This document shows, one piece after another, positions 5,467 to 64,000 of a DNA stretch of 64,000 nucleotides. Made by a program: the position numbers and the translations under genes. The stretch's first letter is position 1. Every line of letters begins with the position of its first letter. Location: assembly GCA_963713855.1 (NCBI GenBank), contig OY970209.1, positions 1,088,001 through 1,152,000 of the forward strand, in the 5' to 3' direction. Origin of the DNA: an uncultured bacterium (lineage in GTDB: Bacteria; Babelota; Babeliae; Babelales; Babelaceae). The notes under the pieces are model-generated. The model did no database searches, was not told the DNA's origin, and saw nothing but the letters and a program-made list of their open reading frames with translations.

Positions 5467-5473
5467 GATTCTT

Positions 5474-13678: not shown

Positions 13679-15967
13679 ATGCAGTTCATGATATTGCTGG
13701 GCCTATTATTGTGTTTTGTGGTCACAAGAATGGAATCAAATAGTAGTTGCTCGTTACAGCCGGGTGTCAATTATCCCTTTCCTGGTTCTTCAGTACCTAC
13801 TTTAGTGGCATTTTCACCGTCAGGCAACTATCTTGCGACTGCCAATGGTGCTTCGAATGATGTTACTCTATTTACGGTAGGAGCCGGGGGAGTATTGGAT
13901 GCTGGTACCACCACTGCTTTACCATCTGGTTCTACACAAGCTATTTCAGTAGCATTCTCACCGTCGGGTAATTATCTTGCTACCGCTAATTATTCTTCAA
14001 ATGATGTAACAGTATTTACCGTAGGGGCTGGAGGCGTTCTGAGTGGGGCGGCATCGTACGCTTTACCAGTGGGTTCTATTAATCCTTTTTCTGTGGCATT
14101 TTCACCTGATGGCTTATATCTTGCAGTGGCAATCGCTAACTCGAATGATGTAGCTATATTTTCAGTAGGCGTTGGTGGAGCATTGAGCGGCGTGACACCC
14201 TACGCTTTACCCCCTGGCTCTACGGGACCTTCTTCAGTGGCATTTTCACCATCAGGCAATTATCTGACCACCGCGAATTCAGGTTCAAATGATGTGACCG
14301 TATTTACGGTAGGATTAGGCGGTGCTTTGAGCGGAGGGTTAAGCTATGCTTTGCCTCCTGGTTCTACAATACCTTCTTCAGTCGTATTTTCCCCATCAGG
14401 CAATTATCTTGCTACTGCTAATTATGGTAATGCCAGTGGTACTACAGTAACGCTATTTCAAGTGGGAGCAGGAGGAGTATTAAGCGGAGGAGTAAGCTCC
14501 GCTTTACCTTCTGGCTCTACAGGGCCTATTTCAGTAGCATTTTCACCGTCGGGTAATTATCTTGCTACTGCTAATTATGCTTCACATGATGTAACCGTGT
14601 TTACCTTAAGTGCAGGAGGAACTTTAAGCACTGGCATATCTTATATTTTGCCTTCGGGTTCTTCTAATCCTCAGTCAGTGGCATTTTCACCATCAGGCAA
14701 TTATTTTGTAACTGTTGATGGTGGCGTAGGTATTCACGTAACAGTATTTATCCTGAATTGTTCAGCAAGCCCAACGATAGTAGGTACTTCCTATCCTTTG
14801 CCCACTGGTTCTCGTGAGCCTCATTCAATAGCTATTTCAAAGAATGGTTTATTTTTGGCAACAGGCAATTACAATTCAAGCGATGTAACGCTATTTTCAG
14901 TAGGTAATGATGACACACTCAGTAGCGCCGCCTCATTCTCGTTACCACTGGGTTCATTGGCACCGGCGAGTATTGCCTTTTCATATGACACATCATACGT
15001 GGCAACAGCAAATAGCAAAACAAATGATGTAACTCTTTTTCACGTAACCGCAGGAGCGCTAGCAGGGGCAACATCATATAAATTACCGAGCAATTCAACT
15101 CATCCCGTTGCGATTGAATTTTCGCCGGATGATGCTTATCTTGTAACTGCTAACAGTCAATCGGGGGATATCACATTGTTCAAAGTAGCAGGAGGAGCAC
15201 TTAGCGATGCTCTTTCTTATACTTTGCCCGCTAATTCAACAAATCCAGTAGCGGTAGCGTTTTCACCCGATGGCTCATATTTAGCGACGGCCAATGCTCT
15301 GTCAAATGACGTCACACTCTTTAACGCCACCAATGGGGTACTAAAAAGTATATCGTCCCATACACTGCCTATTGATTCAAGCATGCCACACTCAGTCGTG
15401 TTTTTACCAACACCTACCGGGATTTTTATAGCAACGGCAAACAGTAATTCAAGTGATATAACACTATTTCCAGTACAGGGGGGTACGTTGGAAACGGGAA
15501 CGTCATATAAATTACCACTCGGTTCAACAGATCTACTATTTATTTCAGCTGCACCACAAGGAACATATCTAGCGACGGCAAATGGTATTTCTAATGTCTT
15601 TACCTTGTTTACGGTGAGCAACGGGATCCTAGGCCAAGGTTTTTCATATAATCTGCCTGGAAATTCGAGTAATGATGTAGCAGTAGCGTTCGCTCCGGTA
15701 CCGACAAGCACAGGAAATGTGTTTCTTGCAACTGCAAACAGCGACTCAAACGATGTATCGGTTGTAACGATTCTTGGTTCTGAGGGAGATGGTAGTAGCA
15801 ACGTTCCTCTCGGTCTTATCTTAGGAATATCTCTGGGAGTTCCTGCGGCTTTTGTGGTTGGAGCAACGGCCATTTCGGCGGGTGCATTTGTTTACTATCA
15901 GTATTGGTATAGGCATCGTGGCCTTCGGAGTGTGAATTATGGTACTGATTCCACGGACACATTATGA
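13679..15967 (+). CDS. Membrane-anchored beta-propeller repeat protein (7+7 blades)
   Basis: Signal peptide; 14 repeats of SYxLPxGSxxPxSVAFSPxGxYLATANxxSNDVTxF; GDGSS linker; TM helix; tail RHRGLRSVNYGTDSTDTL. Confidence 0.9.
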   Translation: MQFMILLGLLLCFVVTRMESNSSCSLQPGVNYPFPGSSVPTLVAFSPSGNYLATANGASNDVTLFTVGAGGVLDAGTTTALPSGSTQAISVAFSPSGNYLATANYSSNDVTVFTVGAGGVLSGAASYALPVGSINPFSVAFSPDGLYLAVAIANSNDVAIFSVGVGGALSGVTPYALPPGSTGPSSVAFSPSGNYLTTANSGSNDVTVFTVGLGGALSGGLSYALPPGSTIPSSVVFSPSGNYLATANYGNASGTTVTLFQVGAGGVLSGGVSSALPSGSTGPISVAFSPSGNYLATANYASHDVTVFTLSAGGTLSTGISYILPSGSSNPQSVAFSPSGNYFVTVDGGVGIHVTVFILNCSASPTIVGTSYPLPTGSREPHSIAISKNGLFLATGNYNSSDVTLFSVGNDDTLSSAASFSLPLGSLAPASIAFSYDTSYVATANSKTNDVTLFHVTAGALAGATSYKLPSNSTHPVAIEFSPDDAYLVTANSQSGDITLFKVAGGALSDALSYTLPANSTNPVAVAFSPDGSYLATANALSNDVTLFNATNGVLKSISSHTLPIDSSMPHSVVFLPTPTGIFIATANSNSSDITLFPVQGGTLETGTSYKLPLGSTDLLFISAAPQGTYLATANGISNVFTLFTVSNGILGQGFSYNLPGNSSNDVAVAFAPVPTSTGNVFLATANSDSNDVSVVTILGSEGDGSSNVPLGLILGISLGVPAAFVVGATAISAGAFVYYQYWYRHRGLRSVNYGTDSTDTL

Positions 15968-16004
15968 GCTGGATTCCGGTTTTTGAAAAGTAGTAAGGAG
16001 TAAC

Positions 16005-16328
16005 ATGATGTTGCCTAGAAGTATTCCTCAGAAACATTCTTTTAAGCTTAGTTTTTTTCTTCCATAAGCTCAGTTGCCCAACCTGTTAGCGAAATTAGCT
16101 ATGCTTTGCCCGGTGCCTCTTTCTGGCCTTCCGGTGCACAATTTTCGCCCAACGGTCAGTATCTTGCAACTGCGAATAAAAATGATGTATCAGTTTTTTA
16201 ATGTGCAAGCGGGCGGAACGTTGCTTGCAGGCTCGTCCTCTTTACTACCTCCGGGTACTACGACCCCCTACGCAGCAGTATTTTCGCCTGATAGCTCTTA
16301 TCTAGCTACCGCTAACTTCAATACATAG
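16005..16328 (+). pseudogene. 5' stub of a long-class propeller gene
   Basis: AAGGAG precedes ATG 16005 and the frame stops early after a T7 run. Another frame reads SEISYALPGASFWPSGAQFSPNGQYLATANKNDVSVF. An extra T in a T6 run (~16194-16199) shifts the frame again, and the stub ends in blade 2. Confidence 0.8.
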
Positions 16329-16358
16329 GCTGGCTTTAAATCCGAAAAGTTTGGAACA

Positions 16359-19300
16359 TTAAAGCTCTTCTTCCGGTCCGTAATTTACGCTTCCAAGTGA
16401 AGTTCGAGGTCTATGAACGTGCTTATAAATTAAAAAAGCAACTACGCCGGCAGTAGTAAGAAGAACCGCAGTGCCCACAATACCCGCGGTTAATGTTGTT
16501 GCGAGTATGATGGCCAAATCGTTATTGCTGGATAAGCCATCACCACCGTCTCCACCTTGCGCGCCATTGGTGTTACCATCCCCGAAAAGTGAAGCCACCG
16601 TCACATCGTCCGAAAGCGCATTAGCAGTAGCAAGATGTACTCCGTCAGGCGCAAAAGTTATACCTACACATTGTGTTGAGTTAGCTGGCAAGTTAAAAGA
16701 AATCCCCTGGCTTAAGACGCCGTTACTTACCGTAAAAAGAGTGAAGCTGCTTGATGCGCTGTTAGCAGTTGCTATATAGGTACCATTTGTTGATGAAGCA
16801 GCAGCAATTGACTGCGGATTAGTAGTTCCCGATGGTAACGGATATGACTGTCCATTATTCAAAGTGCCAGCTTGAAAGTCAAATACAGAAACGTCATTAG
16901 AGTCACCATTTGCGGTAATGAGTAAGAATGTATTACTCAATGGTAAAAATGCTATAGATTGAGGTCCGGAAGATCCTGTAGGAAGAGCTGTTGATGCTCC
17001 AGAGCTTAAAGCACCTGCGCTAAATGACCATGTCGTTACGTCATTCGAACCATGATTTGCGCTTGCAAGAAAAGCACCGTTAGGTGTAAAAGCAAGAGCC
17101 GCAGGTTCCGTTGAACCTGCCGGTAATGCGTAAGCAGTGGGATTTGTGAGCGATGCACCTGTTATATCAAATACGACAACATTATTTGAATCACGGTTAC
17201 AAACTACAACATAAAGGTCATCGGGTGAAAAAGCGATGCCTGATGGATTTGTTGATCCAGGAGGTAAAGAGTACGATATGGGCTTAATTAATTGGCCACT
17301 ATTAACGTGGAAAAGTGTCACATCATTTGAGTTATGGTTGCCAGTGGCAACTAAAGAATTATTTGCAGAAAAAGCTATCGATGTGGGATTTGAAGGTGTT
17401 TGTAAATTGTAAGGCAATGGAAAAGCCTTTTTTGCGGTGAGTGTAAACGTGTTGTTGCTTGAATTTACGTCAAAAAGTGCAACGTCGCTTGACCCAAAAT
17501 TCGCAGTTACCAAGTATGAGCGATCGGATGAAAAAGATACGGCGCTAGGCCTTTGGGAACTTATTGAAAGTTGTGGCAAAATGTACGACGTTCCCGTATT
17601 AAGGGTTCCGCCCGTTGAGGTAAAAAGAGTGATATCAGAAGAACCCGTATTAGCGACAGCTGTAAACATGCTGTTGGGTGAAATAGCTATTGAATTATCA
17701 AAATAATCGCCCGTTGGTAGTGGATACGTTGCCAGCAAACTAAGTACGCCTCCTGCTCCAACGCTAAATGTCGTAACCTTGCCTATTCCAGTATCAATGG
17801 CTATATATGAGCCATCGGCGGAAAACGCAAGGGAGAAAACGCCGCCGCTTGGTAAACTATATGACGTCGCGCCACTTAAAACTCCTCCAGATCCCACATT
17901 AAACATAGTTACTTGTCCCGAAACAACAGCGAGATGTAAGCCATCGGGCGAAAACGAAAGCGAAGTGGCGCCTGCAAAATAAGAGGGCACTGAGTAACTA
18001 GTGCCTGTACTCAAAGAGCCTCCTACTCCAACACTAAATATTGTCACATTAGATGAGCCGTTAGCGGTAGCTACATATGAGCCATCGGGTGAAAAGGCTA
18101 TTGCCAAAGGATCCCAAGTACTCGCTGGCAACGAATACGACGTTCCCGCGTTCAATGTCCCACCGTTAACCGTAAAAATCGTTACACTACCTGCCAATTG
18201 AGAATCACTGTTTGCTGTAGCAAGGTAATTGCCTGATGGCGAAAAAGCTAGTCCCGAGGGTGCATAAGAACCGACTGGCAGAGGGTATGAGATTCCAGTG
18301 CCGAGTACTTCGCCTGCTTGCACATTAAATACTGTTACGCTGTTTGCATACTTATTAGTGGTTGTAATGTAGGAACCGTTAGGTGAAAATGCAATTGAAG
18401 TAGGCTGTGTGGTATTTGAAATTACCTGGTAAGATGCAGCATTCGATAAAGCTCCGCCTGAGCCAACACTAAATATCGATACGTTGTTTGAGTACCTATT
18501 AGCAGTGGCTAAGTACGCACCATCTGCAGAAAATGCTACCGATTCAGGAGCAATCGAATTTGTAGGCAACGCATAGGTCGTCCCAGCATTTAATGTGCCT
18601 CCCGACTGCACGGTAAATACTGTGACACTATTTGAGAAGGTGTTAGCTGTAACGAGATTGGTGCTATTTGGTGAAAAGGTAATTGAATTAGGCCTTGGAT
18701 TAGAACTTGGTATTGAGTAGGAAGTGCCTGTGCCAAGAGTTTGTCCGGTTACGCTAAACAGGGTCACATCATTAGAACCCGAATTTGCGGTTGCAAGGTA
18801 CTGGCCATTTGGTGAAAATGCAACTGAAGAAGCGTTATTAGATCCTGTCGGCAGCGAGTATGTGGTGGGATTACTCAGAGTACCCCCAGTTCCCACCGTT
18901 AATAGCACAACATTTGAGACGCCGGCGCTGGCCAGAAGTGAGCTATCTGGTGAGAAAGTCGCTGCATAGGTGCCAGTTGCTCCCGAATATGTCGTTGGGC
19001 TACTTAAGGTGCCGTTTGATCCTATGGTAAATAAAACAATTTGTGAGAAATGCGCAACAACGAGATATAAACCGTTGGGGGAAAATGTTAACGAACTTGA
19101 ATAACCGATGTATCCATCGAGAAAAGCAGTGGGGCCGAGTGAGTAGGAGTTTCCCACATTAAGGATGCCTCCCACGCCAACTGTAAATATCGTTACGTCT
19201 CCTGATTCGAAGTTTACCGTTGCAAGAAATGAACCATCTGGTGAAAAGGCGATCGATTGGGGAGAAAGCGAGCCGCTAGGTAAAGGATACGTAGCAGCGC

Positions 19301-19664
19301 CGCTCAGCACTCCACCAGCTCCAACTTGAAATATGGTTACGTCGTTGGTAAATGAATTAGCAGTAGCAAGGTATAATCCGTTAGGCGAAATCACTGAGCA
19401 ACTGGGAGGCGTTAATCCTACCGGTAATCGATAAGAACTCATTGCACTAAGCGCTCCAGTTCCCGATACGCTAAATATTGACACATCGTCAGAACCATTA
19501 GCGCTAGCAAGGTATGATCCATTAGGCGAAAATACTGCAGCATTAGGCCATTTAGAAACGCCTGGCAAAGGGTAGCTGATCTCGCTGAGTGCTTTACTCA
19601 GACAGTTCCAAGAAATAAGACTTAAGCTAAAAAGTAAGTATCGTACGCTTGATTGAGCCGTCAT
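16359..19664 (-). CDS. Membrane-anchored beta-propeller repeat protein (21 blades, class lacking bracketing Cys)
   Basis: Signal peptide, 21 counted repeats, GDGGDG linker, TM, tail HRPRTSLGSVNYGPEEEL. Confidence 0.9.
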   Translation of the reverse strand: MTAQSSVRYLLFSLSLISWNCLSKALSEISYPLPGVSKWPNAAVFSPNGSYLASANGSDDVSIFSVSGTGALSAMSSYRLPVGLTPPSCSVISPNGLYLATANSFTNDVTIFQVGAGGVLSGAATYPLPSGSLSPQSIAFSPDGSFLATVNFESGDVTIFTVGVGGILNVGNSYSLGPTAFLDGYIGYSSSLTFSPNGLYLVVAHFSQIVLFTIGSNGTLSSPTTYSGATGTYAATFSPDSSLLASAGVSNVVLLTVGTGGTLSNPTTYSLPTGSNNASSVAFSPNGQYLATANSGSNDVTLFSVTGQTLGTGTSYSIPSSNPRPNSITFSPNSTNLVTANTFSNSVTVFTVQSGGTLNAGTTYALPTNSIAPESVAFSADGAYLATANRYSNNVSIFSVGSGGALSNAASYQVISNTTQPTSIAFSPNGSYITTTNKYANSVTVFNVQAGEVLGTGISYPLPVGSYAPSGLAFSPSGNYLATANSDSQLAGSVTIFTVNGGTLNAGTSYSLPASTWDPLAIAFSPDGSYVATANGSSNVTIFSVGVGGSLSTGTSYSVPSYFAGATSLSFSPDGLHLAVVSGQVTMFNVGSGGVLSGATSYSLPSGGVFSLAFSADGSYIAIDTGIGKVTTFSVGAGGVLSLLATYPLPTGDYFDNSIAISPNSMFTAVANTGSSDITLFTSTGGTLNTGTSYILPQLSISSQRPSAVSFSSDRSYLVTANFGSSDVALFDVNSSNNTFTLTAKKAFPLPYNLQTPSNPTSIAFSANNSLVATGNHNSNDVTLFHVNSGQLIKPISYSLPPGSTNPSGIAFSPDDLYVVVCNRDSNNVVVFDITGASLTNPTAYALPAGSTEPAALAFTPNGAFLASANHGSNDVTTWSFSAGALSSGASTALPTGSSGPQSIAFLPLSNTFLLITANGDSNDVSVFDFQAGTLNNGQSYPLPSGTTNPQSIAAASSTNGTYIATANSASSSFTLFTVSNGVLSQGISFNLPANSTQCVGITFAPDGVHLATANALSDDVTVASLFGDGNTNGAQGGDGGDGLSSNNDLAIILATTLTAGIVGTAVLLTTAGVVAFLIYKHVHRPRTSLGSVNYGPEEEL

Positions 19665-19930
19665 GAAGCTCTCCCTTTTAAGACCATGTTTTCATGTACC
19701 AATATCGATTGGAAGAACAAACTAATGCAAAGTGTCTTTTGCAACCACCACCAATTTTACGTTCGGGTAAATATAGCACTCATGGTTCTTTTGTCAATCG
19801 GACTATAGATGAACTTATGGCTTGCATTCTCATCTGATAAAGATAGTCCTTTAATAGCTTCGACAATGCCAAGTGGCTTTTCCTGAGCGGTGCGTCTTCA
19901 TAAAATGCTTCTACTTGCCGTAGCTCTTTT

Positions 19931-21789
19931 TTACGAAAAATTAACCGTACCTGTTCTTGATCGAACCCTATAGTAGTGGTACTTATAGCCTGCAAAGCCA
20001 ATAAGGGAAGCTGCGATAGCGACTGCCGCAAGCCCCAGCGGCACTCCTACCGTTGTTCCAACAATGACGCTTATGGGTAAGCCGTTGCTTCCATCCCCCG
20101 TTCCTGCAGCGCCAAGCAACGGTGAAATTGACACGTCATTTGAATAGAGATTTGCTGTACCGATTGAGCCACTTCCGTCACTTGCCAATAAAAAAACTAC
20201 AGCAACACCGTCGGTGGAGTTGCCAGGCAAATCATATGACGCCTGACTATTTAAAGTGCCTCCTGAAAGATTAAATAAAACAATACTATTTGATCCGCTG
20301 TTAGCTGTTGCAAGATAGGCTCCACCAGGCGATATTGCTAGCCACTGAGGGCTTACATTTCCTTCAGGAAGTGAATACGATTGTGCACTGGTGAACGTAT
20401 CTGCTTGTATACGAAAGATGGTTACATCATTTGAATCGCTATTACATGTAGCAAGAAATAAGTTATTTGCTCCGTCAGTAAAAAAGCTCAGCGATTGGGG
20501 CTTATTTGAGTTAACGGGCAGTGGTTGTGAAATTCCGTTGGTCAAAATGCCACTGGAAACCTTAAAGAGTGTTATATCGTTTGATCCTATGTTGGCTGTG
20601 GCACAGTAAGTACCGTCAGGTGCAAAAGCAATCGCTACTGGATTTGAAGAACCGTTAGGCAACATATATGAAAGAGGACCAACCAAAGAGCCTGCTGCGA
20701 AGTTGAACACTGTTACATCGTTTGACTGGCTATTTGCTACAGCAACATGCATATCATCGGGTGAAAATTCGATTGAGATGGGATTTTTAGAGCCTGTTGG
20801 TAAACGATACGACTGTGCTTTAGTTAATTGTCCACCTACGACGTTAAAGAGGGTAAGGTCATTTGAGTTACCGTTAGCTGTTACCAAGTAGGTTGTATTA
20901 AGAGAAAAGGCTGAGGACAAGGGGTTTGTTGAATTAACCGGTAAAGGAAATGATTGTCCCGAATTGAGCGTTATCTGATTGTTGTTTTGACTCACAGGAA
21001 ACAGTGTTACATCGCTTGATTGATAATTTGTTGTGGCAAGATACGATCCATCTTGGGAACGCTCGATTGAGCCTGGCTCAATCGAGTGAGCTGGCAAGGG
21101 ATATGAAGTTCCGTGAGGAACAAGACTACCACAGATAAGCGTAAAGAGTGTTACATTATTTGAGGTTTCGTTTGCAGTAACAATATAGGCACCATTAGGT
21201 GTAAATGCTATTGATGAAGGGTTGCGAGCCCCGGGCGGTAACGGATACGACGTGCCATTAGTAAGTCTTCCAGCAGAAACAGTAAATATGGTGACGTCAT
21301 TTGATGTATTATTAGCAGAAACCAAAAAAGAACTATCCGGTGAGAATGCCAGTGAAATAGGAAAACTAGAGCTTGCAGGAACAGGATACGAAGTTCCTGA
21401 GCTGAGAACGCCACCAGCTCTTACGGTAAATAGTGTTATATCGTTGGTGGAATTAGCAGTTGCAAGGTACTCTCCGTTTGGTGAAAATGCTATTGAGTAA
21501 GGACCACTCGAGCCGATAGGCAAAAAATACGTGCATGGTAGATTAAGGACCCCGCCCGGATTTACCGTAAATACAGTTACAGTGCTGTAAAATTATTAGC
21601 GGTTGCCAGATATGAGCCGTCTGGTGAAAATGCTGCCTCATGAGGTGCCGTATAGTGCGTAGCCGGTGGCAAACTATAACTAACGCCAGACAATGTAGGG
21701 CACAAATTTTGAGCTCCCATGCTATGGGTAAAAACAAAAACTAGAAGTGCGCACACAGAAAGAAAAACGTTACCCACTATAAAGAACAT
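19931..21789 (-). pseudogene. Beta-propeller repeat gene (4+7 blades) split by one frameshift
   Basis: ORF 21577..21789 (signal + blade 1) and ORF 19931..21523 join if one base is added near 21585-21592, giving ...ATANNF-x-STVTVFTVNPGGVLNLPCTYFLPIGSSGP. Otherwise intact, with TM and tail RTGTVNFS. Could be a sequencing error. Confidence 0.75.
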
Positions 21790-21829
21790 AGCAAATTCCT
21801 CACTTCATTCTACTTGAGACATTCGGCTG

Positions 21830-21857
21830 AAAGTAGCATGAATGATTTTTTTGTCAA
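21830..21857 (-). promoter_or_regulatory. Sigma70-type promoter with extended -10
   Basis: Minus strand TTGACA-16 nt-TACTTT with TGn before the -10, upstream of ATG 21789. Confidence 0.55.
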
Positions 21858-21956
21858 TTCTTGTTAACTGTTAAATAAACTAATGAACAATTGGAAGAAA
21901 GCATGCTTCGTGCCCCGGTATTCTACGCGTAAAAATCCTTGCATAGAATAACCTCC

Positions 21957-22038
21957 TGGTTCCAATAATAACCCCGAGCGGAAGGCTACTGCCATCTCCT
22001 TTCTGGCCACTACCACCAAAAAGCGAAGCAACACTCAA
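21957..22038 (-). pseudogene. Relic of a propeller gene C-terminal linker/TM start
   Basis: Minus strand reads LSVASLFGGSGQKGDGSSLPLGVIIGT, the family's last strand, GDGSS linker and start of the TM, isolated in an intergenic region. Confidence 0.75.
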
Positions 22039-22172
22039 TGATCTTGATGTTGATCAAACGTGCTAGCGCAGATAGAATTCACACATTCTATTCTGATTTG
22101 CTATTGCATTTTTAGTGTTGTATCATTTTGCATGTATTGCTTGCAATTAGTTAGAGCGCATCTTGTAAGCAT

Positions 22173-25526: not shown

Positions 25527-25778
25527 CAGAGAGCGACTTTGGTGGGACTGTGTTACGTGGCGGAATCGTCCATTCGAGGAATATGAATATGCCTGTTGCC
25601 TAACTATTGCTGTATTGCTCATCTTCGAGCAGGAAAATGAGCTTGAGACTCTTGAGCTCCTACTGCACCCACAAATCAGCATTCCAAAAGCCTTGTTTAA
25701 AGTTTCCCCCGCAGAGGGAAGTTTTTTAGAAAAATTTCCTTCCAAAAGGGAAAAAATCTCTATATATGTCCAGTATAG

Positions 25779-26045
25779 AGGGAAAGAACTGGTGAAGGTG
25801 ATAAAGAGGCCGATTTTGTGCTTCTTATGCCTGACCAAACAATTAACCTTTTTCAAGTGTGCTTATCGATGCAATCATTGGATACTCGTCGTAGAGAAAT
25901 TGCAGGATTAGAAGATGCTATGAAAGAGCTCAATCTGAAAAACGCTTGCATAATAACGCTTGAGGAGGAAGAAAAAATTACGTCACCTGTGGGTGAGATT
26001 GAGGTTGTACCTGCATGGAAATTTTTTCTCCATCGGAGCATCTAA
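25779..26045 (+). pseudogene. C-terminal fragment of an AAA_14/DUF4143-type ATP-binding protein
   Basis: After an in-frame TAG the frame reads ERTGEGDKEADFVLL..FQVCLSM..TRRREIAGLEDAMKEL..IITLEEEE..EIEVVPAWKFFL, the typical C-terminus of this family. No P-loop part is present. Confidence 0.7.
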
Positions 26046-28315: not shown

Positions 28316-28367
28316 CAAAACAATCCTTTTATAATAGCTAATTATGCAAGCGCTGAGTGCCAGAGCT

Positions 28368-47950: not shown

Positions 47951-47985
47951 GTAGTTAAAACTGCTCAGAAGGATACCATGAAAGG

Positions 47986-53484: not shown

Positions 53485-55788
53485 CTATAGGGGAGTGGAG
53501 CGTAGCGATTCATCCCCGTGGAAATTAATAGTTCCTATACCACGATACCGGTATTTATAAATATAGATTAATACACTAACAGTCGCTATTCCTGCAGCAA
53601 AAAGGCCGAGAACTACTGGCAAGCCAACTGAAAGACCTATAATAACCCCGAGTGGAACGCTACTTCCATCGCCGCCATTTCCCCCCGTTGTGGCGCTATA
53701 GCTACCATCACCAAAGAGCGGAATGATAGACACGTCACTTGAATCAAAGTTGGCAGTGGCAAGATAGGTACCATTTGACACAAATGCTACAGCCACACAG
53801 TCGCTTGAGTTACTCGGCAAAGTATAAGAAATACCTTTGCTTAAAAGGCCACTGGCCACGGCGAAGAGTGTTATGGTGTTGTATATACTATCAGCCGTAG
53901 CAAGATACATACCATCAGGTGAGGAAGCGATTGAAAGAGGATTCATGCTACCCACAGGTAGTGAATAGGATTGCCCAGCACTTAACATGCCTGCTTGTAC
54001 ATCGAAAATGGTCACATCACTAGAACCGCTGTTAGCTGTGGCAACGAGTAAGTTGTTATTACTTAATAAAAAGAGAATTGAGCGCGGCTGCGTAGATCCT
54101 ACGGGCAAATGGTAAGAAGCGCCATTGCTTAACACTCCATTGGTTACTTGAAAGAGCGTTGTATCATTTGAATAGGCATTGGCGGTAGCAAGGTAAGCCC
54201 CACTTGGCGCAAAAGCTAACGATACAGGGTGTAAAGAACCTGCTGGTAACGGATAAGAGAGAGGGCTATTCAAAGCTCCAGAGATTACCTTAAAAATGGT
54301 TATGTCATTTGTGTTACTGTTGGCTACAGCAAGGTACAAATCATCGGGCGAAAATACTGCTGAAGCAGGATTGGTAGAATTCTTAGGCAATGCATATGAT
54401 GTCCCTCCCGTTAGTGCTCCTCCTACAACGTTAAAGAGCGTTACATCGTGTGAGTTGCTATTTGCCGTTGCAACATGTGCGTTATCGAGGGAAAAAGTAA
54501 CCGAAGTGGGATTTAATGAACCGGATGGTAAGGGGTACGATTTTCCTAAGGAAAGCGTATCCAGCGTACCCGTCGAATTTACCATGAACATCGTTACATC
54601 GCTTGTGTTATAATTTCCTGTTGCTAGATACAAGTTATTTGGGGAAATAGCTACTGAGTCAGGCCCGTAGGAACCAGGGGGTAAGGGATAAGAGGTTGTT
54701 GGGATACTGCCGCTAGGACAATTGACTGTAAAGACCGTAACATTATTTGAAGTATGATTAGCAGTTGCACAATATAAACCATTTGGTGAAAACGCTATTG
54801 AAGATGGGCGAGTAGAGCCAGAGGGTAATGGATAGGAGGCGCCATTGCTTAAGGCACCGCCTGTTCCTACCGTAAAAACCGTCACATCATTTGAGGTATC
54901 ATTAGCAGTAGCACAATATAAACCATTTGGTGAAAATGCTATCGAAATAGGCAATGTAGAACCAGAAGGTAAAGAGTATGGAGTAGCCCCGCTCAGCACA
55001 CCTCCCGTTCCTACACTAAATACTGTTACATTGTCACTAGCAGTAGCAAGATATAAGCCATTGGGTGAAAATGCTACTGAATAGGGTGTACCACTAGGCA
55101 AAGTATACGATGTACCGCCACTTAAAGACCCTCCCACGCCCACACTAAATACCGTTAGGTTATTTGAACCATTATTAGCAGTAGCAAGATATGAGCCATT
55201 TGGTGAAAAAGATATTGAAACGGGATCTGTGGAACCTGATGGCAAAGGATACGAAGTGCCTCCACTTAAGACACCGCCTGATCCTACACTGAATACTGTG
55301 ACATCATTTGAATAATTAGCTGTAGCAAGATATGCGCCATTTGGCGAAAATGTTATCGACAAGGGATCTGTGGAACCAGCCGGTAATGCGTACGTGGTGC
55401 CACCGCTTAGAGCACCGCCTGATCCTACGCTATATATTATTACACCAGCACCATTTTGATTATTGCTGGCAAGATACGAGCCATCGGGTGAAAATGCTAT
55501 CGTAAAGGGAGATGCGCCAGAGGGTGCTGTGTACGAAATACCGCCGCTCAGAGCACCTCCTGCTCCTACCGTAAAGATCGTCAGATCATTTGAAGCATTA
55601 TTAGCGGTAGCAAAATATGAGCCATTTGGTGAAAATACTGCTGACCCGGGCTGTAGAGAGCCAGCTGGTAAAGCATAACTCGTGCCCGATGACAAAGAAC
55701 AAGCATCGGAATCTTCAGAACCTAGTATAAAAAAAATTGATAATGTTATATAGAGATAGGCAATTGGAAATCGTTTAGTATTTTTCAT
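53485..55788 (-). CDS. Membrane-anchored beta-propeller repeat protein (7+7 blades)
   Basis: Signal, Cys-bracketed 7 blades plus 7, GDGSSVPLG, TM, tail RYRGIGTINFHGDESLRSTPL. Confidence 0.9.
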   Translation of the reverse strand: MKNTKRFPIAYLYITLSIFFILGSEDSDACSLSSGTSYALPAGSLQPGSAVFSPNGSYFATANNASNDLTIFTVGAGGALSGGISYTAPSGASPFTIAFSPDGSYLASNNQNGAGVIIYSVGSGGALSGGTTYALPAGSTDPLSITFSPNGAYLATANYSNDVTVFSVGSGGVLSGGTSYPLPSGSTDPVSISFSPNGSYLATANNGSNNLTVFSVGVGGSLSGGTSYTLPSGTPYSVAFSPNGLYLATASDNVTVFSVGTGGVLSGATPYSLPSGSTLPISIAFSPNGLYCATANDTSNDVTVFTVGTGGALSNGASYPLPSGSTRPSSIAFSPNGLYCATANHTSNNVTVFTVNCPSGSIPTTSYPLPPGSYGPDSVAISPNNLYLATGNYNTSDVTMFMVNSTGTLDTLSLGKSYPLPSGSLNPTSVTFSLDNAHVATANSNSHDVTLFNVVGGALTGGTSYALPKNSTNPASAVFSPDDLYLAVANSNTNDITIFKVISGALNSPLSYPLPAGSLHPVSLAFAPSGAYLATANAYSNDTTLFQVTNGVLSNGASYHLPVGSTQPRSILFLLSNNNLLVATANSGSSDVTIFDVQAGMLSAGQSYSLPVGSMNPLSIASSPDGMYLATADSIYNTITLFAVASGLLSKGISYTLPSNSSDCVAVAFVSNGTYLATANFDSSDVSIIPLFGDGSYSATTGGNGGDGSSVPLGVIIGLSVGLPVVLGLFAAGIATVSVLIYIYKYRYRGIGTINFHGDESLRSTPL

Positions 55789-56131: not shown

Positions 56132-59100
56132 TCATAATGAATCAGTAGTATCTGGCCCAATATTAACACTACCTAAAGCAGCGCGTGGCCTGTATACATA
56201 GTGATACACTCCACAGAGCGCAACTCCTATTGTGGCCAACAAGGCAGCACCTCCTAGAATAGTCACAGGTAAAACAGTTGCAAGAATAATCGTTACCTCA
56301 TTATTGTTTGAGGAGCTTCCTAAACCACCAGCACTACCGTCACCACCTAACAGGGCTCCAAAAGAACCGACTGTTACATCATTTGAATCAAAATTAGCAG
56401 TAGCGAGATATTCTTGTCCATTGGTTGCATTGTTCGGTGCAAAAGTGAGGGCAACGCAGTGGGTTGAGTTGGTAGGTAAAGGGTAAGAACCATTTGCTTG
56501 TAGGATTCCATTGTTAACAGTAAAGAGCGTGAAACTATTCGAATCGCTATTGGCCGTAGCAATATAAGCACCATTGAATGAAGCGGCAATGGATTGTGGA
56601 TTAAGTGAGCCAGTAGGCAATGCGTAGGATTGGGCATTACTTAATGTGCCTGATTGGAAGTTGAACGTAGTAACATCATTTGAACCACCATTAGCAGTAA
56701 CGAGCAGCAACCCGTTGCTTGAAATAGGTAAAAATAAAAGAGACTGGGGTCCCGTAGATCCTGACAGTAAAGGTGTTAAACTTCCGCCGCTTAAGACTCC
56801 TGATGCAAATGTAAACACGGCAATGTTATTAGAGACAAAATTAGCTGTAGCAAGGTATAAACCGTCCGGCGTAAATGTAATTGCTTGAGGATCTGAAGCC
56901 CCCGTAGGGAGCGGGTAGGCGATTGGATTGTTCAAAACACCTGCTGCTATTTGAAATACCGTAACATCATTGGAACCACGGTTGGCGACAGCAACGTAAA
57001 GATTGTCCGGCGAGAACTGTAATGAGCTAGGGTTCGTAGATCCAGCAGATAACGGGTACGAAAGAGCATTTGTTAATTGTCCCGCTGTTAGTTGGAAGAC
57101 GGTGACATCATTTGTTTTGTCATTGGCCGTTAAAACATACAGGGTGTCGAAAGAAAAAGCTACTGAAGCGGGAAATGAAGCAGTGACACCATTGTACGGT
57201 AACGGGTAAGACCGTTTTGTTCCCAAAGTAACATTGTTGTTAGTCGAATCAACTGTGAAGAGGGTGACATCGCTTGTATCATAATTTGCTGTTGCAAGGT
57301 ATAAAGCATTTGCTGAAAAAGCTATCGCAGTTGGCTCTTGAGAGCCTGTGGATAGTGGTGGTAAGGGGTACGAAGTTCCTCCAGTGAGTGCTCCTCCAGT
57401 TACGGTAAATACACTTACATTAGACGAACCATAATTAGCGGTGGCAAGATAAGCGCCATTTGGTGAAAATGCAGCTGAGTAGGGATTTGTAGAACCAGAG
57501 GGTAACGCATACGATGTACCACCACTGAGCACTCCTCCCGAACCTACGCTAAAGACAGTGACAGTATTTGAAGCATTAGCAGAATTAGCAGTAGCAAGAT
57601 ATGAACCATTTGGTGAAAATGCTAGCGATCTGGGATTAAAAGAGCCAGAGGGTAAAGCGTACGAGGTACCTCCACTCAGAATTCCTCCTGTTCCCACAGT
57701 AAATACTGTTACGTCATTTGAATTGAAATTAGCAGTAGCAAGGTATGCACCAGTTGGTGAAAATGCTACTAAAATGGGATCTGTAGAACCAGGAGGTAAT
57801 GCATACGATGTGCCGCCGCTCAGAATACCTCCTGTTCCTACAGTAAATACGGTCACATTATTTGAACCACCATTAGCAGTAGCCAGGTATGATCCATTCG
57901 GCGAAAATGCTACTGATTGGGGATATGAAGAACCAGAAGGCAATGTATACGAAGTACCTCCACTGAGCGTGCCTCCCGTTACATTAAATACTGTTACCAT
58001 AGCGTGCTCCGGATCAGTAGCAACAAGATATAAGCCATTTGGTGAAAATGCTACTGAAACAGGATATGCAAAATTATAAGGCAGAGAATACTCAGTACCT
58101 TGGCTGAGCACGCCTTCGGCTCCAACGCTAAATAATATTATCCTGCCCGAATTTGGATTAGCTGTAGCAAGATATGAACTATCCGGTGAGAAGGCTACAG
58201 AGAATGGCTCTATGGAAGTGGAGAACACCGGATATGATGTACCCCCGTTGAGAGCACCTCCAGTTACACTAAATATCGTCACGTTCGCAGAAAAATAATT
58301 AGCGGTAGCAAGATATGAGCCATCAGGAGAAAAAGCTACTGAATAGGGATTTGTAGAGCCAGAAGGTAATGGATAGGCGGTGCCACCGCTCAGCACACCT
58401 CCCGTCACGCTAAATATCGTCACGGTGGTTGCCCCATTAGCAACAGCAAGATAGTTATCATTGGGTGAAAATGCTACTGCGTAGGCACCTGCTGGTAGAG
58501 AATAAGAAGTCCCCCCGTTCAGAACACTTCCAGTTCCTACTCTAAATATCGTCACATTATTTGAAGTTAAATTAGCAGTAGCAAAGTATAAACCGTTAGA
58601 CGAAAATGCTCCTGATTGGGATCCGGTAGAACCAGCAGGCAACGGATATGACGTAGCCCCACTAAGAACGCCCCCTGTTCCCACATTAAATACCGTAACG
58701 GTATTTGAACTACAACATATATTAGTTGTAATAACAATTGAATTATTGGGTGAAAATGCTATCGAAGTAGGCTCGCTTGAACCAGAAGGCAAGGCATACG
58801 ATATTCCATTGCTCAGTTTTCCTTCAGCTTCCACGCTAAACACAGTAACGTTAGCCGAATTAATGTTGGCAGTAGCAAGATATGAGCCATTTGGCGAAAA
58901 TGCTATTGATTGAGGGCTGAAAGAACCAGAAGGAAGTGAGTAAGAAGTTGCCCCGTTCAAGATACCTCCGGTCCCTACGTTAAATACACACACGTCATTT
59001 GAACCCGAATTAGCAGTAGCGAGATATAAGCCATTAGGCGAAAATGCTACTGAGTAAGGAGTTTTAGAACCGGCAGACAAAGGATACGATGTACCACCGC

Positions 59101-59470
59101 TCAAGACTCCTCCGGTTCCCACGCTAAAGACCGTTACATCATTGGAATTTTGATTCACCGTGGCAAGGTATAAGCCATTTGGGGAAAAAACTGCTGAATA
59201 GGGACCTGTTGGGGCCGCAGGCAACGAAAAAGAACTGCCTTCAGTGAAGATGCCTCCCGTTTGCACATTAAAAACTGAAACATCATTGAGATTAGCTGTT
59301 GCAAAATATTGACCATTGGGCGAAAATTGTCCATCACTAGGCCATTCAGACGCGCCTGGCAGGGGGTAACTTACCTCGCTTATGGCTCGAGTCAACATGC
59401 TGACAGTGCAAATGATTACTAGGCTTAATACAATAATCCATCTCTGTATGAGAGTAATAAAAGTCTTCAC
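56132..59470 (-). CDS. Membrane-anchored beta-propeller repeat protein (21 blades)
   Basis: GTG start with GGAG RBS, signal, 21 counted repeats, TM, tail RPRAALGSVNIGPDTTDSL. Confidence 0.9.
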   Translation of the reverse strand: MKTFITLIQRWIIVLSLVIICTVSMLTRAISEVSYPLPGASEWPSDGQFSPNGQYFATANLNDVSVFNVQTGGIFTEGSSFSLPAAPTGPYSAVFSPNGLYLATVNQNSNDVTVFSVGTGGVLSGGTSYPLSAGSKTPYSVAFSPNGLYLATANSGSNDVCVFNVGTGGILNGATSYSLPSGSFSPQSIAFSPNGSYLATANINSANVTVFSVEAEGKLSNGISYALPSGSSEPTSIAFSPNNSIVITTNICCSSNTVTVFNVGTGGVLSGATSYPLPAGSTGSQSGAFSSNGLYFATANLTSNNVTIFRVGTGSVLNGGTSYSLPAGAYAVAFSPNDNYLAVANGATTVTIFSVTGGVLSGGTAYPLPSGSTNPYSVAFSPDGSYLATANYFSANVTIFSVTGGALNGGTSYPVFSTSIEPFSVAFSPDSSYLATANPNSGRIILFSVGAEGVLSQGTEYSLPYNFAYPVSVAFSPNGLYLVATDPEHAMVTVFNVTGGTLSGGTSYTLPSGSSYPQSVAFSPNGSYLATANGGSNNVTVFTVGTGGILSGGTSYALPPGSTDPILVAFSPTGAYLATANFNSNDVTVFTVGTGGILSGGTSYALPSGSFNPRSLAFSPNGSYLATANSANASNTVTVFSVGSGGVLSGGTSYALPSGSTNPYSAAFSPNGAYLATANYGSSNVSVFTVTGGALTGGTSYPLPPLSTGSQEPTAIAFSANALYLATANYDTSDVTLFTVDSTNNNVTLGTKRSYPLPYNGVTASFPASVAFSFDTLYVLTANDKTNDVTVFQLTAGQLTNALSYPLSAGSTNPSSLQFSPDNLYVAVANRGSNDVTVFQIAAGVLNNPIAYPLPTGASDPQAITFTPDGLYLATANFVSNNIAVFTFASGVLSGGSLTPLLSGSTGPQSLLFLPISSNGLLLVTANGGSNDVTTFNFQSGTLSNAQSYALPTGSLNPQSIAASFNGAYIATANSDSNSFTLFTVNNGILQANGSYPLPTNSTHCVALTFAPNNATNGQEYLATANFDSNDVTVGSFGALLGGDGSAGGLGSSSNNNEVTIILATVLPVTILGGAALLATIGVALCGVYHYVYRPRAALGSVNIGPDTTDSL

Positions 59471-59654
59471 GCTATCTCCGTAATTTGTAAATGTATGTTC
59501 GCTATAAGCTTATTTTTTCTGAAAAAGTTTTTCTCAGAAAATTTTTTCCATTCTTGCACAAAGCAACAATTTGTGCAACTGGTATTGCCTGGCTAGGCAA
59601 CATCATATTCTTTAGTTACGTATATGTAAATGTGTAAGCCGCTGTTAAATCAAC

Positions 59655-60345
59655 GAGTGTGCCTGTTGGCTCAGTAAATCCTTTAGGGCAAAATTCGAAC
59701 AACGATGTAACCATAACTTTCTCGCTAAATGGGTCTTTTCTTGTCACAGATAAGCTTTGAAAAGCTAGCTAGATTGCCTAAGTTTAAAGTGGTAGATTTG
59801 TTCTACCTTTAAAAGATGTTTCCGTATTCGATTTTCAAGCGGGCACTGTGAGCAATGGCCAGTCCTATCCATTACCTTCATAAACCATTAATCCGCAATC
59901 TATTACTGCAGCTTCATCGATGAATGGTAAGTACATGGCGACTGCTAACAGCGGATCAAGTAGCTTTACTCTTTATACAGTAAGCAATGGTATCTTAAGT
60001 TAGGGAATTTCATATGACTTGCCAGCTAACTCGACATAATGTGTTGGTATAACGTTTGCTCCCGACGGAGCGCATCTGACCACTGCCAATGCCTTTTTAG
60101 ATCATATGACGGTAGCTTCGCTTTTCGAGGGCGGTAATAATTATGGTGGCACTGGAAGCGTTGGAGATGGTTTAAGCGGCAATAATAATTTGGCCATCAT
60201 TCTCACCACAACGCTAACCGTGGGTATTGTGGGAACTGCCGCCATTCTTACGACTGCAGCCGCAGTTTCTTTTTTGGCTTACAAATATACATCGACCTCG
60301 TGCCGCACTCGGAAGCGTAAACTACGGACGGAAGAAGAGCTTTAA
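59655..60345 (+). pseudogene. Decayed 3' part of a propeller gene, closest to 16359..19664
   Basis: From 59815: DVSVFDFQAGTVSNGQSYPLPS*TINPQS..GILS*GISYDLPANST*CVGITFAPDG..LAIILTTTLT. In-frame stops at 59881, 60001 and 60037; frameshifts in the tail (..RPRAALGSVNYG..EEEL). Scrambled blade pieces lie at 59655-59755. Confidence 0.88.
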
Positions 60346-60639: not shown

Positions 60640-61611
60640 ATGCGCGTAGATCGCTCTACATACGCTGTGTCTAATGTTCTCGAATGGCTCTTAGCGCACG
60701 GATTTAACTTCGGGTCTAAGGATAAAAAGAGGGGTGAGACACCTTGCCAAAAAGCAATGAGGACTCGCTCCGAAGAAGCTATGCTGTGGTTTATTGAGCA
60801 CGGAGATAGAACCCCAGTGGATTTCATTGCACAATCCCTTGGAGATGAAAACTCCGACAGCGATGACGATGAAGATGAAGATGCAGACAGTGACGAATTG
60901 ATCAAGAAAAAGCCATTAATTAAAGCAATTTTTAATCGAGACTCACCATGTGTCCAAAGGCTATTGGAAGGCGGTACGCTTGATTCCTGGGATTTTAGGC
61001 ATTCATTTTTGCTCATGATAGCTTTGGGCGATGATTGGCTTGGCCATGAGCCTATTGACTATGTTGTAAAAAATATGAAAGACGAGATAACCTTGAGCAC
61101 TTTGGTCTTTGCCCTTGAAACAGCTATCGTTAATAATAATGAGCGAATGTTTATGGTATTGCTAAATTGGCTAAAAGAACGTGTAAAAGCTGAAGCTGAA
61201 AGAAAACGTTCTGCGGCTGCAGATACAAGCAAATTTTCCACTGTAATCGAAAGAATTTTATTTTGGGCAGCGATATTCGGTCGCGAAAGAATGGCCAGGG
61301 AAATAACAAGCTATGCTCTCTTGAGAAATATCTCGTTAGAAAGGGCTCGATGGCGCATTGAACAGTATTTAACTCGTACAAATTTCCGGCAGGAAGAACA
61401 TGCGAAGAAAGAAATGATCAGTTCTATTCTAGAAAGTCTCAGGCAAGCACTTAAACTTAATGAGGAACTAGCGGCTGTCTATAAAAGGGAATTAAATAAG
61501 AAACTTCATCCTTTCGGGACTTCTTCTTTTTATGTCGACATCGTGAGGAATTTTCCTATCGAGGTCATTCAAATGATAGTGGCAATGTTTTATATGCAGA
61601 ATAGAAATTAA
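60640..61611 (+). CDS. Ankyrin-like paralogue of 46262/47986, apparently 5'-truncated, with C-terminal F-box-like motif
   Basis: LEWLLAHG..GETPCQKA, FRHSFLLMIALG, ALETAI, ILFWAA, NFPIEVIQMIVAMF. No signal peptide. An in-frame TAA at 60616 precedes an ankyrin-like GGTLAH. Confidence 0.65.
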   Translation: MRVDRSTYAVSNVLEWLLAHGFNFGSKDKKRGETPCQKAMRTRSEEAMLWFIEHGDRTPVDFIAQSLGDENSDSDDDEDEDADSDELIKKKPLIKAIFNRDSPCVQRLLEGGTLDSWDFRHSFLLMIALGDDWLGHEPIDYVVKNMKDEITLSTLVFALETAIVNNNERMFMVLLNWLKERVKAEAERKRSAAADTSKFSTVIERILFWAAIFGRERMAREITSYALLRNISLERARWRIEQYLTRTNFRQEEHAKKEMISSILESLRQALKLNEELAAVYKRELNKKLHPFGTSSFYVDIVRNFPIEVIQMIVAMFYMQNRN

Positions 61612-62314
61612 TGCACAAAGAAGAACAAATGCGAATGAATTCAGCCTCTAGCAAGAAAAAATAATCCCTCCCATAATTTGTATGAAGCGATGTCTTTTCT
61701 TTTGTCTTATTTGATTCTCGTTGCCCTATTTTAAATGCGGATTGTAGAATGTTTGATTTATTTAAAAATATTTGTATATGATTTATAGTGATAAATCTCA
61801 GCGGGGGGAGCTCGTATCAAAATAGCTCCATTTCAAGAAAAAAGCTGTAGTATAAGCTTTTTTATAGATCTATGACAACAAATCAGAATTTGTTGACTTA
61901 GGTATTGGGCAATCTTTGCTTGGGATCTTTTCCGTGAGAAGAACTTGGCCTCTACCGTCGCGGATTCTTAAATGAAAAATTCACGCGTTATTAGTGAACT
62001 TTAAAGGCCCAGAATTGCGGCCTACTCTTTTAGAACTTAAAAAGTTTAGGTTGGGTCTTTTCATAGCGCTTCCATTCATGGATACTATGTTCCGTATTTC
62101 TTGGCTTTTTAAGCCCTTTAACAAAACCTAAAATATTCCTACTACAGAATCGTAACACAATTAATTCCCGCTTGCTTACATCGTTATCCAGGTGAACTAT
62201 AATAACAACGTTCTTCGTAAGAAAGAACATTGCAGCGATGTCATAGAAGTCCGGGCGCATCATCTTTAATCGATTAAGATATCCGCTCTGTAAAAATTAC
62301 CAGGAGATTCACGT

Positions 62315-64000
62315 ATGTTTTCTATTCACCACTGCATTCTTTTAATGTTGGTGCTTGTTTCTTTAGTGGGCTCGGAGACTCATGGTCTTTGTCCAGGTAT
62401 TAGTTACACGCTACCGTCTGGTTCTACAAATCCCCATTCAGTAGCATTTTCGCCCAATGGTTCCTATCTCGCTACCGCTAATTTTAATTCAAATGGTGTA
62501 ACCATATTTACCGTGGGAACAGGAGGCGTATTGAGCGGCAGCACGTCATACGCCTTACCGTCTGGTTCTACAGCTCCCTATTCAGTGGCATTTTCGCCGA
62601 ATGGCTCCTATCTTGCAACTGCTAATTATGGCTCAAGTAATGTAACCATATTTAGTGTAGGAACAGGAGGAGTATTGAGTGGCGGCATTTCGTATGCGCT
62701 ACCGTCTGGTTCTTCAGAACCCATATCGGTAACATTTTCACCCAATTCTTCATACCTTGCTATTGGTAATTTTGGTTCAAGTGATGTAACGCTTTTAAGC
62801 TCTGTGTGTCCTAGTGGCAAGAGTCCAACAACTTCATATCCCCTACCTCCTGGCTCTTACGGGCCTGATTCAGTAGCTCTTTCACCGAATAATTTATATC
62901 TTGCGACAGCGAATTATAATTCAAGCGACGTAACCATATTTATGATAAATTCGACTGGCATGATGGATACGCTTTATTTAGGAACGTCATACCCATTACC
63001 ATCCGGTTCATCATACCCGTCTTCAGTTACTTTTTCGCTTGATAACGCATATGTTGCAACAGCCAATAGCTACTCAAATGATGTCACTCTCTTTAAGGTA
63101 GTAGGAGGAAAGTTAACAGGAGGAATCTCATACGCATTACCTAAGAACTCTACCAACCCAGTTTGGGCAACCTTCTCGCCCGATGATTCTTATCTGGCCG
63201 TAGCCAATTATAAGTCAAACGACGTAACCATATTTAACGTTGCCGTAGGATTATTATCTGGACCAATTTCCTACAGATTACCTGCGGGATCATTAGAGCC
63301 TGTATCACTAGCCTTTGCACCTAATGGTACCCATCTTGCTACTGCCAATGTCAATTCAAGTGACGTGACACTCTTTAAAGTAACAAATGGTGTGTTAAGC
63401 AGTGGCATTTCTTACTCCTTACCCACCGGATCTACGCAACCTCGATCAATCCTCTTTTTGCCCATTTCTGGTGGTGATTTACTCGTTGCTACAGCCAATA
63501 GTGGTTCAGATGATGTGACAACCTTCAGCGTACAAGGAGGCATCCTAAACACGGGTAATTCGTATCCATTACCCCCGGGCGCTTTTAATCCCCTATCATT
63601 GGCCTCCTCATCAGATGGCGCCTACCTTGCTACTGCTAATAGTGGCTCTAACAGTATCACGGTCTTTACTGTTAACGCGGGTATATTAGATCAAGGTACA
63701 TCTTATTCTTTGCCCATTAACTCGAGCGACTGCGTGGCAGTAGACTTTTCGCCAAATGAAACTTATGTTGTTACTGCCAATTTTGATTCAAATGACGTGT
63801 CGCTCATTCCGATCTTGAGCAGAGGTAATGGAATTTCAAGTGAGGGCAGTAGTAGCGATAGTCTTCCGATTGGTGTTATCATAGGAACAACTGTGGGAAT
63901 TCCTCTAGGCCTTGGGGCAACAGCATTAGGAACAAGCATCGTCGGTTTTTTGGTATATAAGTACTTGCACAAGCATCACCATCTAGCTAGCAATGTTAAT
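62315..64000 (+). CDS. Membrane-anchored beta-propeller repeat protein (3+7 blades), partial at window end
   Basis: Not in the ORF track (no stop in the window). AGGAG RBS, ATG 62315 MFSIHHCILLMLVLVSLVGSETHGLC, 3 blades then SVCPSG, 7-blade module, SLPIGVIIGTTVGIPLG TM, tail KYLHKHHHLASNVN... Confidence 0.88.
   Translation, partial: MFSIHHCILLMLVLVSLVGSETHGLCPGISYTLPSGSTNPHSVAFSPNGSYLATANFNSNGVTIFTVGTGGVLSGSTSYALPSGSTAPYSVAFSPNGSYLATANYGSSNVTIFSVGTGGVLSGGISYALPSGSSEPISVTFSPNSSYLAIGNFGSSDVTLLSSVCPSGKSPTTSYPLPPGSYGPDSVALSPNNLYLATANYNSSDVTIFMINSTGMMDTLYLGTSYPLPSGSSYPSSVTFSLDNAYVATANSYSNDVTLFKVVGGKLTGGISYALPKNSTNPVWATFSPDDSYLAVANYKSNDVTIFNVAVGLLSGPISYRLPAGSLEPVSLAFAPNGTHLATANVNSSDVTLFKVTNGVLSSGISYSLPTGSTQPRSILFLPISGGDLLVATANSGSDDVTTFSVQGGILNTGNSYPLPPGAFNPLSLASSSDGAYLATANSGSNSITVFTVNAGILDQGTSYSLPINSSDCVAVDFSPNETYVVTANFDSNDVSLIPILSRGNGISSEGSSSDSLPIGVIIGTTVGIPLGLGATALGTSIVGFLVYKYLHKHHHLASNVN

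Follow-up and report, generated by a model that had tools for sequence, protein, structure and literature searches.

Seven-bladed beta-propellers of the lactonase-like or YVTN type (PF10282) are known from hydrazine synthase beta (5C2V), an archaeal S-layer (1L0Q), Leptospira Lp49 (3BWS) and a lactonase family of Solirubrobacteraceae. Repetitive propellers of another kind, the WRAP proteins (2YMU), carry 40-residue WD blades on cytoplasmic STAND ATPases, and such amplified, disrupted propellers have been tied to prokaryotic innate immunity (PMC9218822). In the Dependentiae, widespread parasites described as infecting protists and as having a degenerate Gram-negative envelope and type II secretion (PMC4776705, PMC6561590, PMC4378268), the genome papers report "many other beta-propeller" proteins and 7 secreted Cys-rich proteins for Babela (PMC4378268), and for both Babela and Chromulinavorax expanded secreted ankyrins and "WD40, beta-propeller and Ig-like" proteins (PMC4378268, PMC6561590). 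The DNA considered here (the window) is a stretch of 64,000 nucleotides from a member of this phylum (Dependentiae, Babeliales; genome a single contig of 1,521,901 bases, hereafter G000), in which positions 13679 to 64000 hold an array of genes for one family of exported propeller proteins. A congener from the same genus (G001) and a further genome of the order (G008) serve for comparison. The literature searched, which left most subscription journals outside its scope, contained no description of this family, in agreement with the sequence-only reading of the array, which had not recognised it.

We put the probability that the family is a diversifying host-binding repertoire at about 0.8. The proteins begin with a signal peptide; one to three head propellers, which vary, are in most cases followed by a single constant base, and the C-terminus is of one of three types. 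Most of the ~50 kb had been taken to encode a single family, and 38,784 of the 50,322 bases (77%) do; what that reading missed is that the array is the densest patch of a genome-wide family, that one class of members lacks a transmembrane (TM) helix, and that the TM members share a tail with a eukaryotic protein family. By tblastn, 70 family intervals occupy 155,869 bases, 10.2% of the genome (9.75% once four weak intervals without a blade match are dropped), or ~60 genes. Among the 52 open frames analysed, 17 have 7 blades, 13 have 14, 19 have 21, one has 28, and two have 10 and 11; the blade count is a multiple of 7 in 50 of these and in 31 of 31 in G001. About 10 further loci are broken.

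A profile search for the distribution of the family found it in multiple copies in G000 and G001, and matched few other genomes: at E <= 1e-30, with only four candidates scored per genome, 10 of 251 genomes of the order match, strongly only G000, G001 and G008. In G001 the 31 open frames and some broken pieces are dispersed, singly or in pairs; G008 has a smaller set, without the TM helix. The full anchor match is limited to G000 and G001 (genus g1) among 261 genomes, with weak helix-only matches in 14 others. Further members are present in metagenomes, and a profile search of genome contigs gave three distant matches. Other Babeliales (L083-L089) have separate expansions of lactonase-like propellers, in other architectures and without this anchor, and G000 itself encodes divergent proteins with only 2-3 family blades, some with a C-terminal helix (C1 612116-614214, 1037915-1039703, 1158954-1160087), of which G001 has one relative (L041).

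For a 14-blade protein and a 59-row alignment, AlphaFold predicts two stacked 7-bladed propellers and a C-terminal helix (pLDDT 88.5; 33.9 in a single-sequence prediction), with a pTM of 0.60 that makes the relative placement of the two propellers uncertain; the model covers a 7-blade head on a 7-blade base. The best fold matches are tied 7-bladed propellers (Z 36-39.5), the top one at Z 39.5 with an rmsd of 1.9 A over 299 residues. In the ESM Atlas, propeller matches score 0.80 or less, and a search with P0264 gave none. The heads share 45-52% identity with exported propellers from Solirubrobacteraceae and other bacteria, so the scaffold is bacterial.

The family divides into constant bases and variable heads. 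In a FastTree phylogeny built from 178 propeller units, with three proteins of odd blade count excluded, the membrane-proximal units of the anchored (TM) multi-propeller proteins, 56 of 56, group in a single clade (support 1.00); the three last units that come from helix-less proteins lie among the heads. Of 16 pairs, which are not independent, 14 have less similar heads than bases and 2 show equal identity in both. Comparison of six closely related G001 pairs shows differences at head positions 4, 21, 2, and 20 in 82, 80, 70, and 67% of blades, as against 5-19% in bases. Aligned to 2YMU, blade positions 2, 4, and 21 correspond to R1-2, R1, and D-1, given as top-face binding positions of WD40 proteins in PMC3419727. 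Omega at these three head positions is 1.27 (bootstrap 1.03-1.57), against 0.22 in the rest of the head and 0.21 in bases, with the caveat that shuffled blades are not strict orthologues.

Blades have also moved. One 14-blade gene in the G001 assembly has, in blades 3-5, sequence that is 98-100% identical to that of blades 9-11 in a distant gene of 21 blades, and several blades within a single gene match each other at 99%. By best nucleotide match, 153 of 174 base blades stay in register, compared with 60 of 258 head blades; in G000 the figures are 183 of 222 and 78 of 368. Judging from the assembled sequence, head blades in G001 are exchanged within and between genes, out of register, while base blades hold theirs. 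A variable face on a constant anchor, as in variant antigens, is thus present, and segmental gene conversion is seen in G001 only. Trees, dN/dS and the blade-swap tests all support the earlier idea of birth and death with variable head and constant base; the family consists of many divergent paralogues with gene gain and loss, not of invariant single-copy orthologues.

An N-terminal cysteine and a second one that follows the final blade of the head covary in heads of 7, 14, and 21 blades alike: among 85 proteins (four truncated or divergent ones excluded), 56 have both, 20 neither, and 9 only one, against a background of 15 of 1133 blades. The 3-blade head obeys the same rule. The pair is probably a disulfide that closes the head ring. 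The 3-blade head (62315-64000) and a ~4-blade head (19931-21789), which keep the C-terminal Cys, may belong to decaying genes or be completed by oligomerisation.

The C-termini comprise a TM helix followed by a tail of the form V-N-F...acidic-L (~20 residues), a CxxxC-TM helix, and a Ser/Thr linker followed by small residues and a short hydrophobic tail. A [VI][NS][FY] motif is found in the tails of 41 of 60 bacterial TM members, as opposed to 6 of 140 other C-terminal-TM proteins of G000, and motif and acidic-Leu end together in 34 of 60 as opposed to 0 of 140. Across 46 tails, V is conserved in 80%, N in 80%, and F in 63%, most later positions in under 50%, and 43 of 53 bacterial tails score above the 99th percentile of shuffled versions. 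Within G000 this anchor occurs only on the propeller family; no Pfam family is common to more than 4 of 46 bacterial anchors. The CxxxC-IIG helix belongs to four single-propeller members, and also to nine non-family matches.

Searched against 1.84 billion proteins, a profile of the 46 anchors gave 98 matches. The 94 new identifiers include 14 proteins with blades, 3 family fragments, and 77 other proteins, 27 of which share the upstream motif of one membrane-protein family (alignment A4). The [VI][NS][FY] motif is in the cytosolic tail of 23 of these 27, compared with 9 of 11 short fragments and 4 of 39 others, and the cytosolic-only profile match is 95% to the eukaryote-type A4 family versus 3% and 10% in two control sets. 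One A4 member, on contig L101, has GT-AG introns, an RCC1 head, and an adjoining peptidase C78 gene, features that make it eukaryotic. The full-length member P0352 combines a signal peptide with an RCC1 propeller as its head. Weak matches to ComC_SSD (E 0.05 and 0.15), a domain that we take to be associated with Amoebozoa, hint at that group; no A4-type family was found in viral contigs. A4 seems to be an unnamed family of eukaryotic type I membrane proteins with variable heads, a constant Y-D-P domain, and the V-N-F tail. Members of the bacterial family without a helix have ends resembling glycosylphosphatidylinositol (GPI) signals: 16 of 24 pass a crude GPI-like rule of our own, drawn up post hoc, as against 4 of 335 controls. 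What appears to be new here is this pair of features, a cytosolic tail motif matching a eukaryote-type family and GPI-signal-like ends on the helix-less members.

The likeness of the tail to a eukaryotic family suggests a changing host-binding set that may act in host membranes. That the repertoire mimics host membrane proteins and acts at host membranes is, in our estimate, evenly poised. An intracellular parasite of eukaryotes would in that case have built a lineage-specific repertoire to resemble the membrane proteins of its host. The heads would bind host proteins or glycans, their rings closed by the Cys pair; export would be by Sec and then by the type II system or vesicles; the propellers would lie in the vacuole lumen or outside the host cell, with the tail read by host sorting machinery; and the proteins might be decoys or receptors for entry, vacuole control, or evasion. 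A stronger version, which we entertain tentatively and consider improbable, is a eukaryote-style receptor library, in which shuffled bacterial heads are grafted on host-derived anchors (either a type I helix bearing a cytosolic sorting motif or else a GPI signal) and delivered into the host secretory pathway. Host machinery would then form the disulfides, sort the proteins, and perhaps add GPI, and the parasite would rebuild the host vacuole or surface.

Several results weigh against mimicry or the wider repertoire. The whole-anchor match is unspecific (99.09% versus 99.11% for generic helices). Only the one contig, L101, is demonstrably eukaryotic. The A4 set was retrieved with the bacterial tail profile, so that the tail match is partly circular, and retrieval by the ectodomain alone found nothing; the motif frequency given for A4 applies to that retrieved set. 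The GPI-like tails are only weakly hydrophobic (median 1.3 over 13 residues), and charged residues terminate several of them; N-glycosylation sequons show no enrichment (944 versus 958 +/- 18). An exported thioredoxin-like protein could form disulfides inside the bacterium, and no path by which the proteins would pass from the inner membrane of the bacterium into one of the host was identified. As to diversification, the three hot-spot positions were fixed after the per-position table had been seen, so that the test was not blind, and G000 has no recent blade swaps: its best match is 92%, which makes its shuffling older.

The alternative that survives best, though we doubt it, is that the proteins never leave the bacterium: they would be anchored in its inner membrane with the propellers in the periplasm, or be displayed as adhesins or decoys on a degenerate envelope without lipopolysaccharide (LPS); the tail would be read by a bacterial partner, and its eukaryotic likeness would reflect old capture or convergence. 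A signal peptide with a C-terminal helix gives, by default, an inner-membrane anchor and a periplasmic domain. Amphipathic tails can also anchor bacterial proteins. G000 encodes BamA, an OmpA-family protein, and two secretins with a PilM/PilN-like gene, gene content by which the organism has an outer membrane, and this together with the signal peptide and helix places the propellers by default in the periplasm. The earlier label of surface adhesins or receptors is supported as to a binding repertoire, but a surface location is not established. LpxB is below cut-off in G000, which matches the loss of LPS genes in Babeliales described in PMC4776705; with three ATP/ADP translocase genes (parasite markers), BamA, the OmpA-family protein, and the secretins, this fits the phylum as described. 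Among 120 RecA matches, the two that bear an organism name are both from Dependentiae. Ribosome-binding sites are present at 38 of 48 starts, which favours a bacterial location and led us to reject translation of these messages by the host.

A periplasmic site, however, poorly accounts for diversification of the top face, and the cytosolic-only match to a eukaryote-type family also speaks against it. Rhomboid, exosortase, and CPBP proteases (PF01694, PF09721, PF02517) were not found in G000, which is 91% complete by markers (sortase, PF04203, was not searched), nor were DsbA, DsbB, VKOR, or Thioredoxin_4. Given an outer membrane and no such protease or Dsb system, plain surface display is not accounted for. 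Close to the secretin genes, L093:1015-2220 (G000:242490) encodes a candidate disulfide catalyst, an exported protein that has a single thioredoxin domain together with a CxxC motif.

As a second and unlikely possibility, the proteins might be tail-anchored effectors that, once secreted to the host cytosol, insert through their C-terminal helix and expose the propellers there as protein-binding scaffolds. G000 has several more exported proteins that carry one hydrophobic segment at the C-terminus and could themselves be such effectors (C1 670740, 1077986, 1078932, 1273713, 1438564), and Chromulinavorax replicates in the host cytoplasm (PMC6561590). The covarying Cys pair, on the other hand, implies an oxidising site, and the tail would face the lumen, opposite to that of the eukaryote-type family.

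Slightly less probable still is a sensor or decoy repertoire against phages or rival endosymbionts, like the fast-turnover WRAP propellers. The innate-immunity connection of such propellers favours it, and 2YMU is the best PDB sequence match, yet a domain scan found no STAND ATPase fusion, TIR, or other signalling domain on family proteins, which moreover are exported and end in tails of some 20 residues. Nor are the blades of WD40 type. Put at ~47 residues by the sequence-only reading, they measure 47-48 and have Phe in 93% of cases at the Trp position, in place of the ~40-residue blade with WD and DHSW tetrad; for Pfam WD40 only the sum over a whole protein passes, and 0 single stretches do.

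It is very improbable that the propellers are active lactonases or other enzymes. Pfam Lactonase scores 151 bits over a cut-off of 21.7, and bacterial relatives carry such names in their sources, whereas the NCBIfam 6-phosphogluconolactonase scores (63/370 and 36/500 bits) fall below the curated equivalog cut-offs. P-R-H, which we take to be the conserved lactonase active-site motif, occurs in 0 of 1278 blades, with no His at that position in 606 head blades, and the would-be active-site face is the most variable. Of the original description as lactonase/YVTN/WD40-like 7-bladed propellers, the lactonase-type fold therefore survives without the WD40 features or the catalytic motif, and curated scores and motif alike fail to indicate active 6-phosphogluconolactonases; a non-enzymatic binding role is supported by these sequence features. 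Neutral repeat expansion or mis-assembly, for which the ~10 broken loci, the relics, and an assembly judged from its sequence might speak, is largely refuted by framework omega of ~0.2, exact multiples of 7, the same family in G001, and almost no exact repeats.

The last point holds for the window itself, where only one 30-mer is repeated, so that it is not a duplicated assembly; with best paralogue identities of 29-70% within G000 and the independent genome G001, an artefact can be set aside. Homopolymer runs near the frameshifts are mostly of background-like length, so that most frameshifts look like real decay, and sequencing errors in such runs are disfavoured for most; single cases remain uncertain.

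Within the array (Table 1), 14 family frames on both strands and all four relics proposed before were located, with the correction that the frame at 19931-21523 is the 3' part of a frameshifted gene starting at 21789. The layout of signal peptide, blades, base, linker, and TM helix is general, apart from one member without the helix and one with only 10 blades. Several genes had been credited with their own promoters; promoter-like sites in 13400-33000 number 27, against 33.9 +/- 5.7 by chance, and so are not above chance overall, though two of the five scoring 10-11 of 12 are directly upstream of family genes, and the best of the scanned region (19797-19770) precedes the gene at 16359-19664.

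Table 1. Propeller-family genes and relics in the window
Position	Strand	Feature	Remark
13679-15967	+	14-blade member: signal peptide, 7-blade head with Cys pair, 7-blade base, TM, VNY...L tail	
16030-16325	+	Relic: frameshifted 5' end of 21-blade-type gene	
16359-19664	-	21-blade member, TM, without Cys pair	
19931-21789	-	Frameshifted member: ~4 head blades, 7 base blades, TM	Shift near 21585
21958-22047	-	Relic: linker and TM start	
22203-25526	+	21-blade member, TM	Start shifted from 22173 by ribosome-binding site and signal peptide
26042-28315	-	14-blade member, TM, Cys pair	Start shifted from 28546
28641-31943	-	21-blade member, TM; Cys pair spans 14-blade head	Start shifted from 32018
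32075-32330	-	Relic: TM and tail	
32504-34777	+	14-blade member without base or TM; Ser-rich linker, GPI-signal-like tail	
34841-38173	+	21-blade member, TM	
38413-40698	+	14-blade member, TM, divergent tail	
40911-44183	+	21-blade member, TM, Cys pair over 14 blades	
50838-53129	-	14-blade member, TM	
53485-55788	-	14-blade member, TM	
56132-59470	-	21-blade member, TM	
59575-60345	+	Relic: base blades, TM, tail	Several in-frame stops
62315-64000	+	10-blade member: 3-blade head with Cys pair, 7-blade base, TM	End 33 bases beyond window

Additional tail relics may lie at 28424-28591 (+) and about 25868-26040 (-), on weak evidence. Six non-family genes fall within the span: four of ankyrin type, one Cys-rich, and one of no known type. 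The Cys-rich protein (49043-49915, -) is exported, with 32 Cys in 290 residues and Galaxin-like repeats; G000:1434792 resembles it, and there are several more exported Cys-rich proteins despite the lack of a detected Dsb system. Clusters of signal-peptide ankyrin-type proteins, typical of the phylum, occupy 44351-48981, 60640-61611, and 3518-11346. The array is flanked by an exported AAA ATPase with weak Lon-like similarity (11943-13412, -); around its closest relative in G001 (L100:9099-10694) no propeller gene occurs in 20 kb, and since G001 members are single or paired, the position of the array is not conserved. Farther upstream are an exported Ppx/GppA-like protein (4411-5466), an AAA_33 kinase-like protein (5474-6127), a protein that by eye is uridine-kinase-like (6306-6962), and an AAA_14/DUF4143 protein (2104-3246).

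The hosts and entry mechanisms of Dependentiae are mostly unknown, and the commitment of ~10% of a reduced genome to one binding scaffold points to where the main contest with the host lies. The common tail offers a concrete handle for finding hosts and for tests of mimicry, and the family amounts to a natural library of binders in which the frame is fixed, a few positions of each blade vary, and recombination acts at the level of blades. Should host machinery indeed read the anchors, they would represent an undescribed route for bacterial proteins into eukaryotic membranes.

Compared with known systems, the family resembles the lactonase-like propellers in blade length and fold (Z 35-39.5), but has no catalytic motif, and has 1-4 propellers per protein, a dedicated base clade, eukaryote-type C-termini, and ~60 paralogues. 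With WRAP it shares repetitive blades, blade-level amplification, broken copies, and 14-blade double propellers (PMC9218822); its blades are longer and exported rather than attached to cytoplasmic ATPases. The secreted families of Babela and Chromulinavorax have in common with it the phylum, signal peptides, type II secretion, and a proposed role in host interaction, although the available portions of those accounts (PMC4378268, PMC6561590) describe no TM- or GPI-like-anchored propeller repertoire. GlyGly-CTERM, PEP-CTERM, and MYXO-CTERM signals likewise put a linker, TM helix, and basic cluster on exported proteins, a combination present here too; the tail of this family is longer and conserved, its anchor in G000 is restricted to the family, and no cognate protease family was found. 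Giardia VSP, Borrelia VlsE, and Anaplasma Msp2 combine a variable ectodomain, a constant anchor, and segmental gene conversion in the same way, while this family differs in showing no silent-cassette or expression-site layout, in its propeller scaffold, and in pairing a diderm producer with a eukaryote-type tail. The A4 family is alike in signal peptide, variable head, constant membrane-proximal domain, Gly/Ser linker, TM helix, and V-N-F...acidic-L tail. Its ectodomains, with an RCC1 propeller head in P0352 and L101, are unrelated to the bacterial propellers, and where its membrane-proximal domain ends in Y-D-P the bacterial family has a propeller instead, so that the anchor is what the two have in common.

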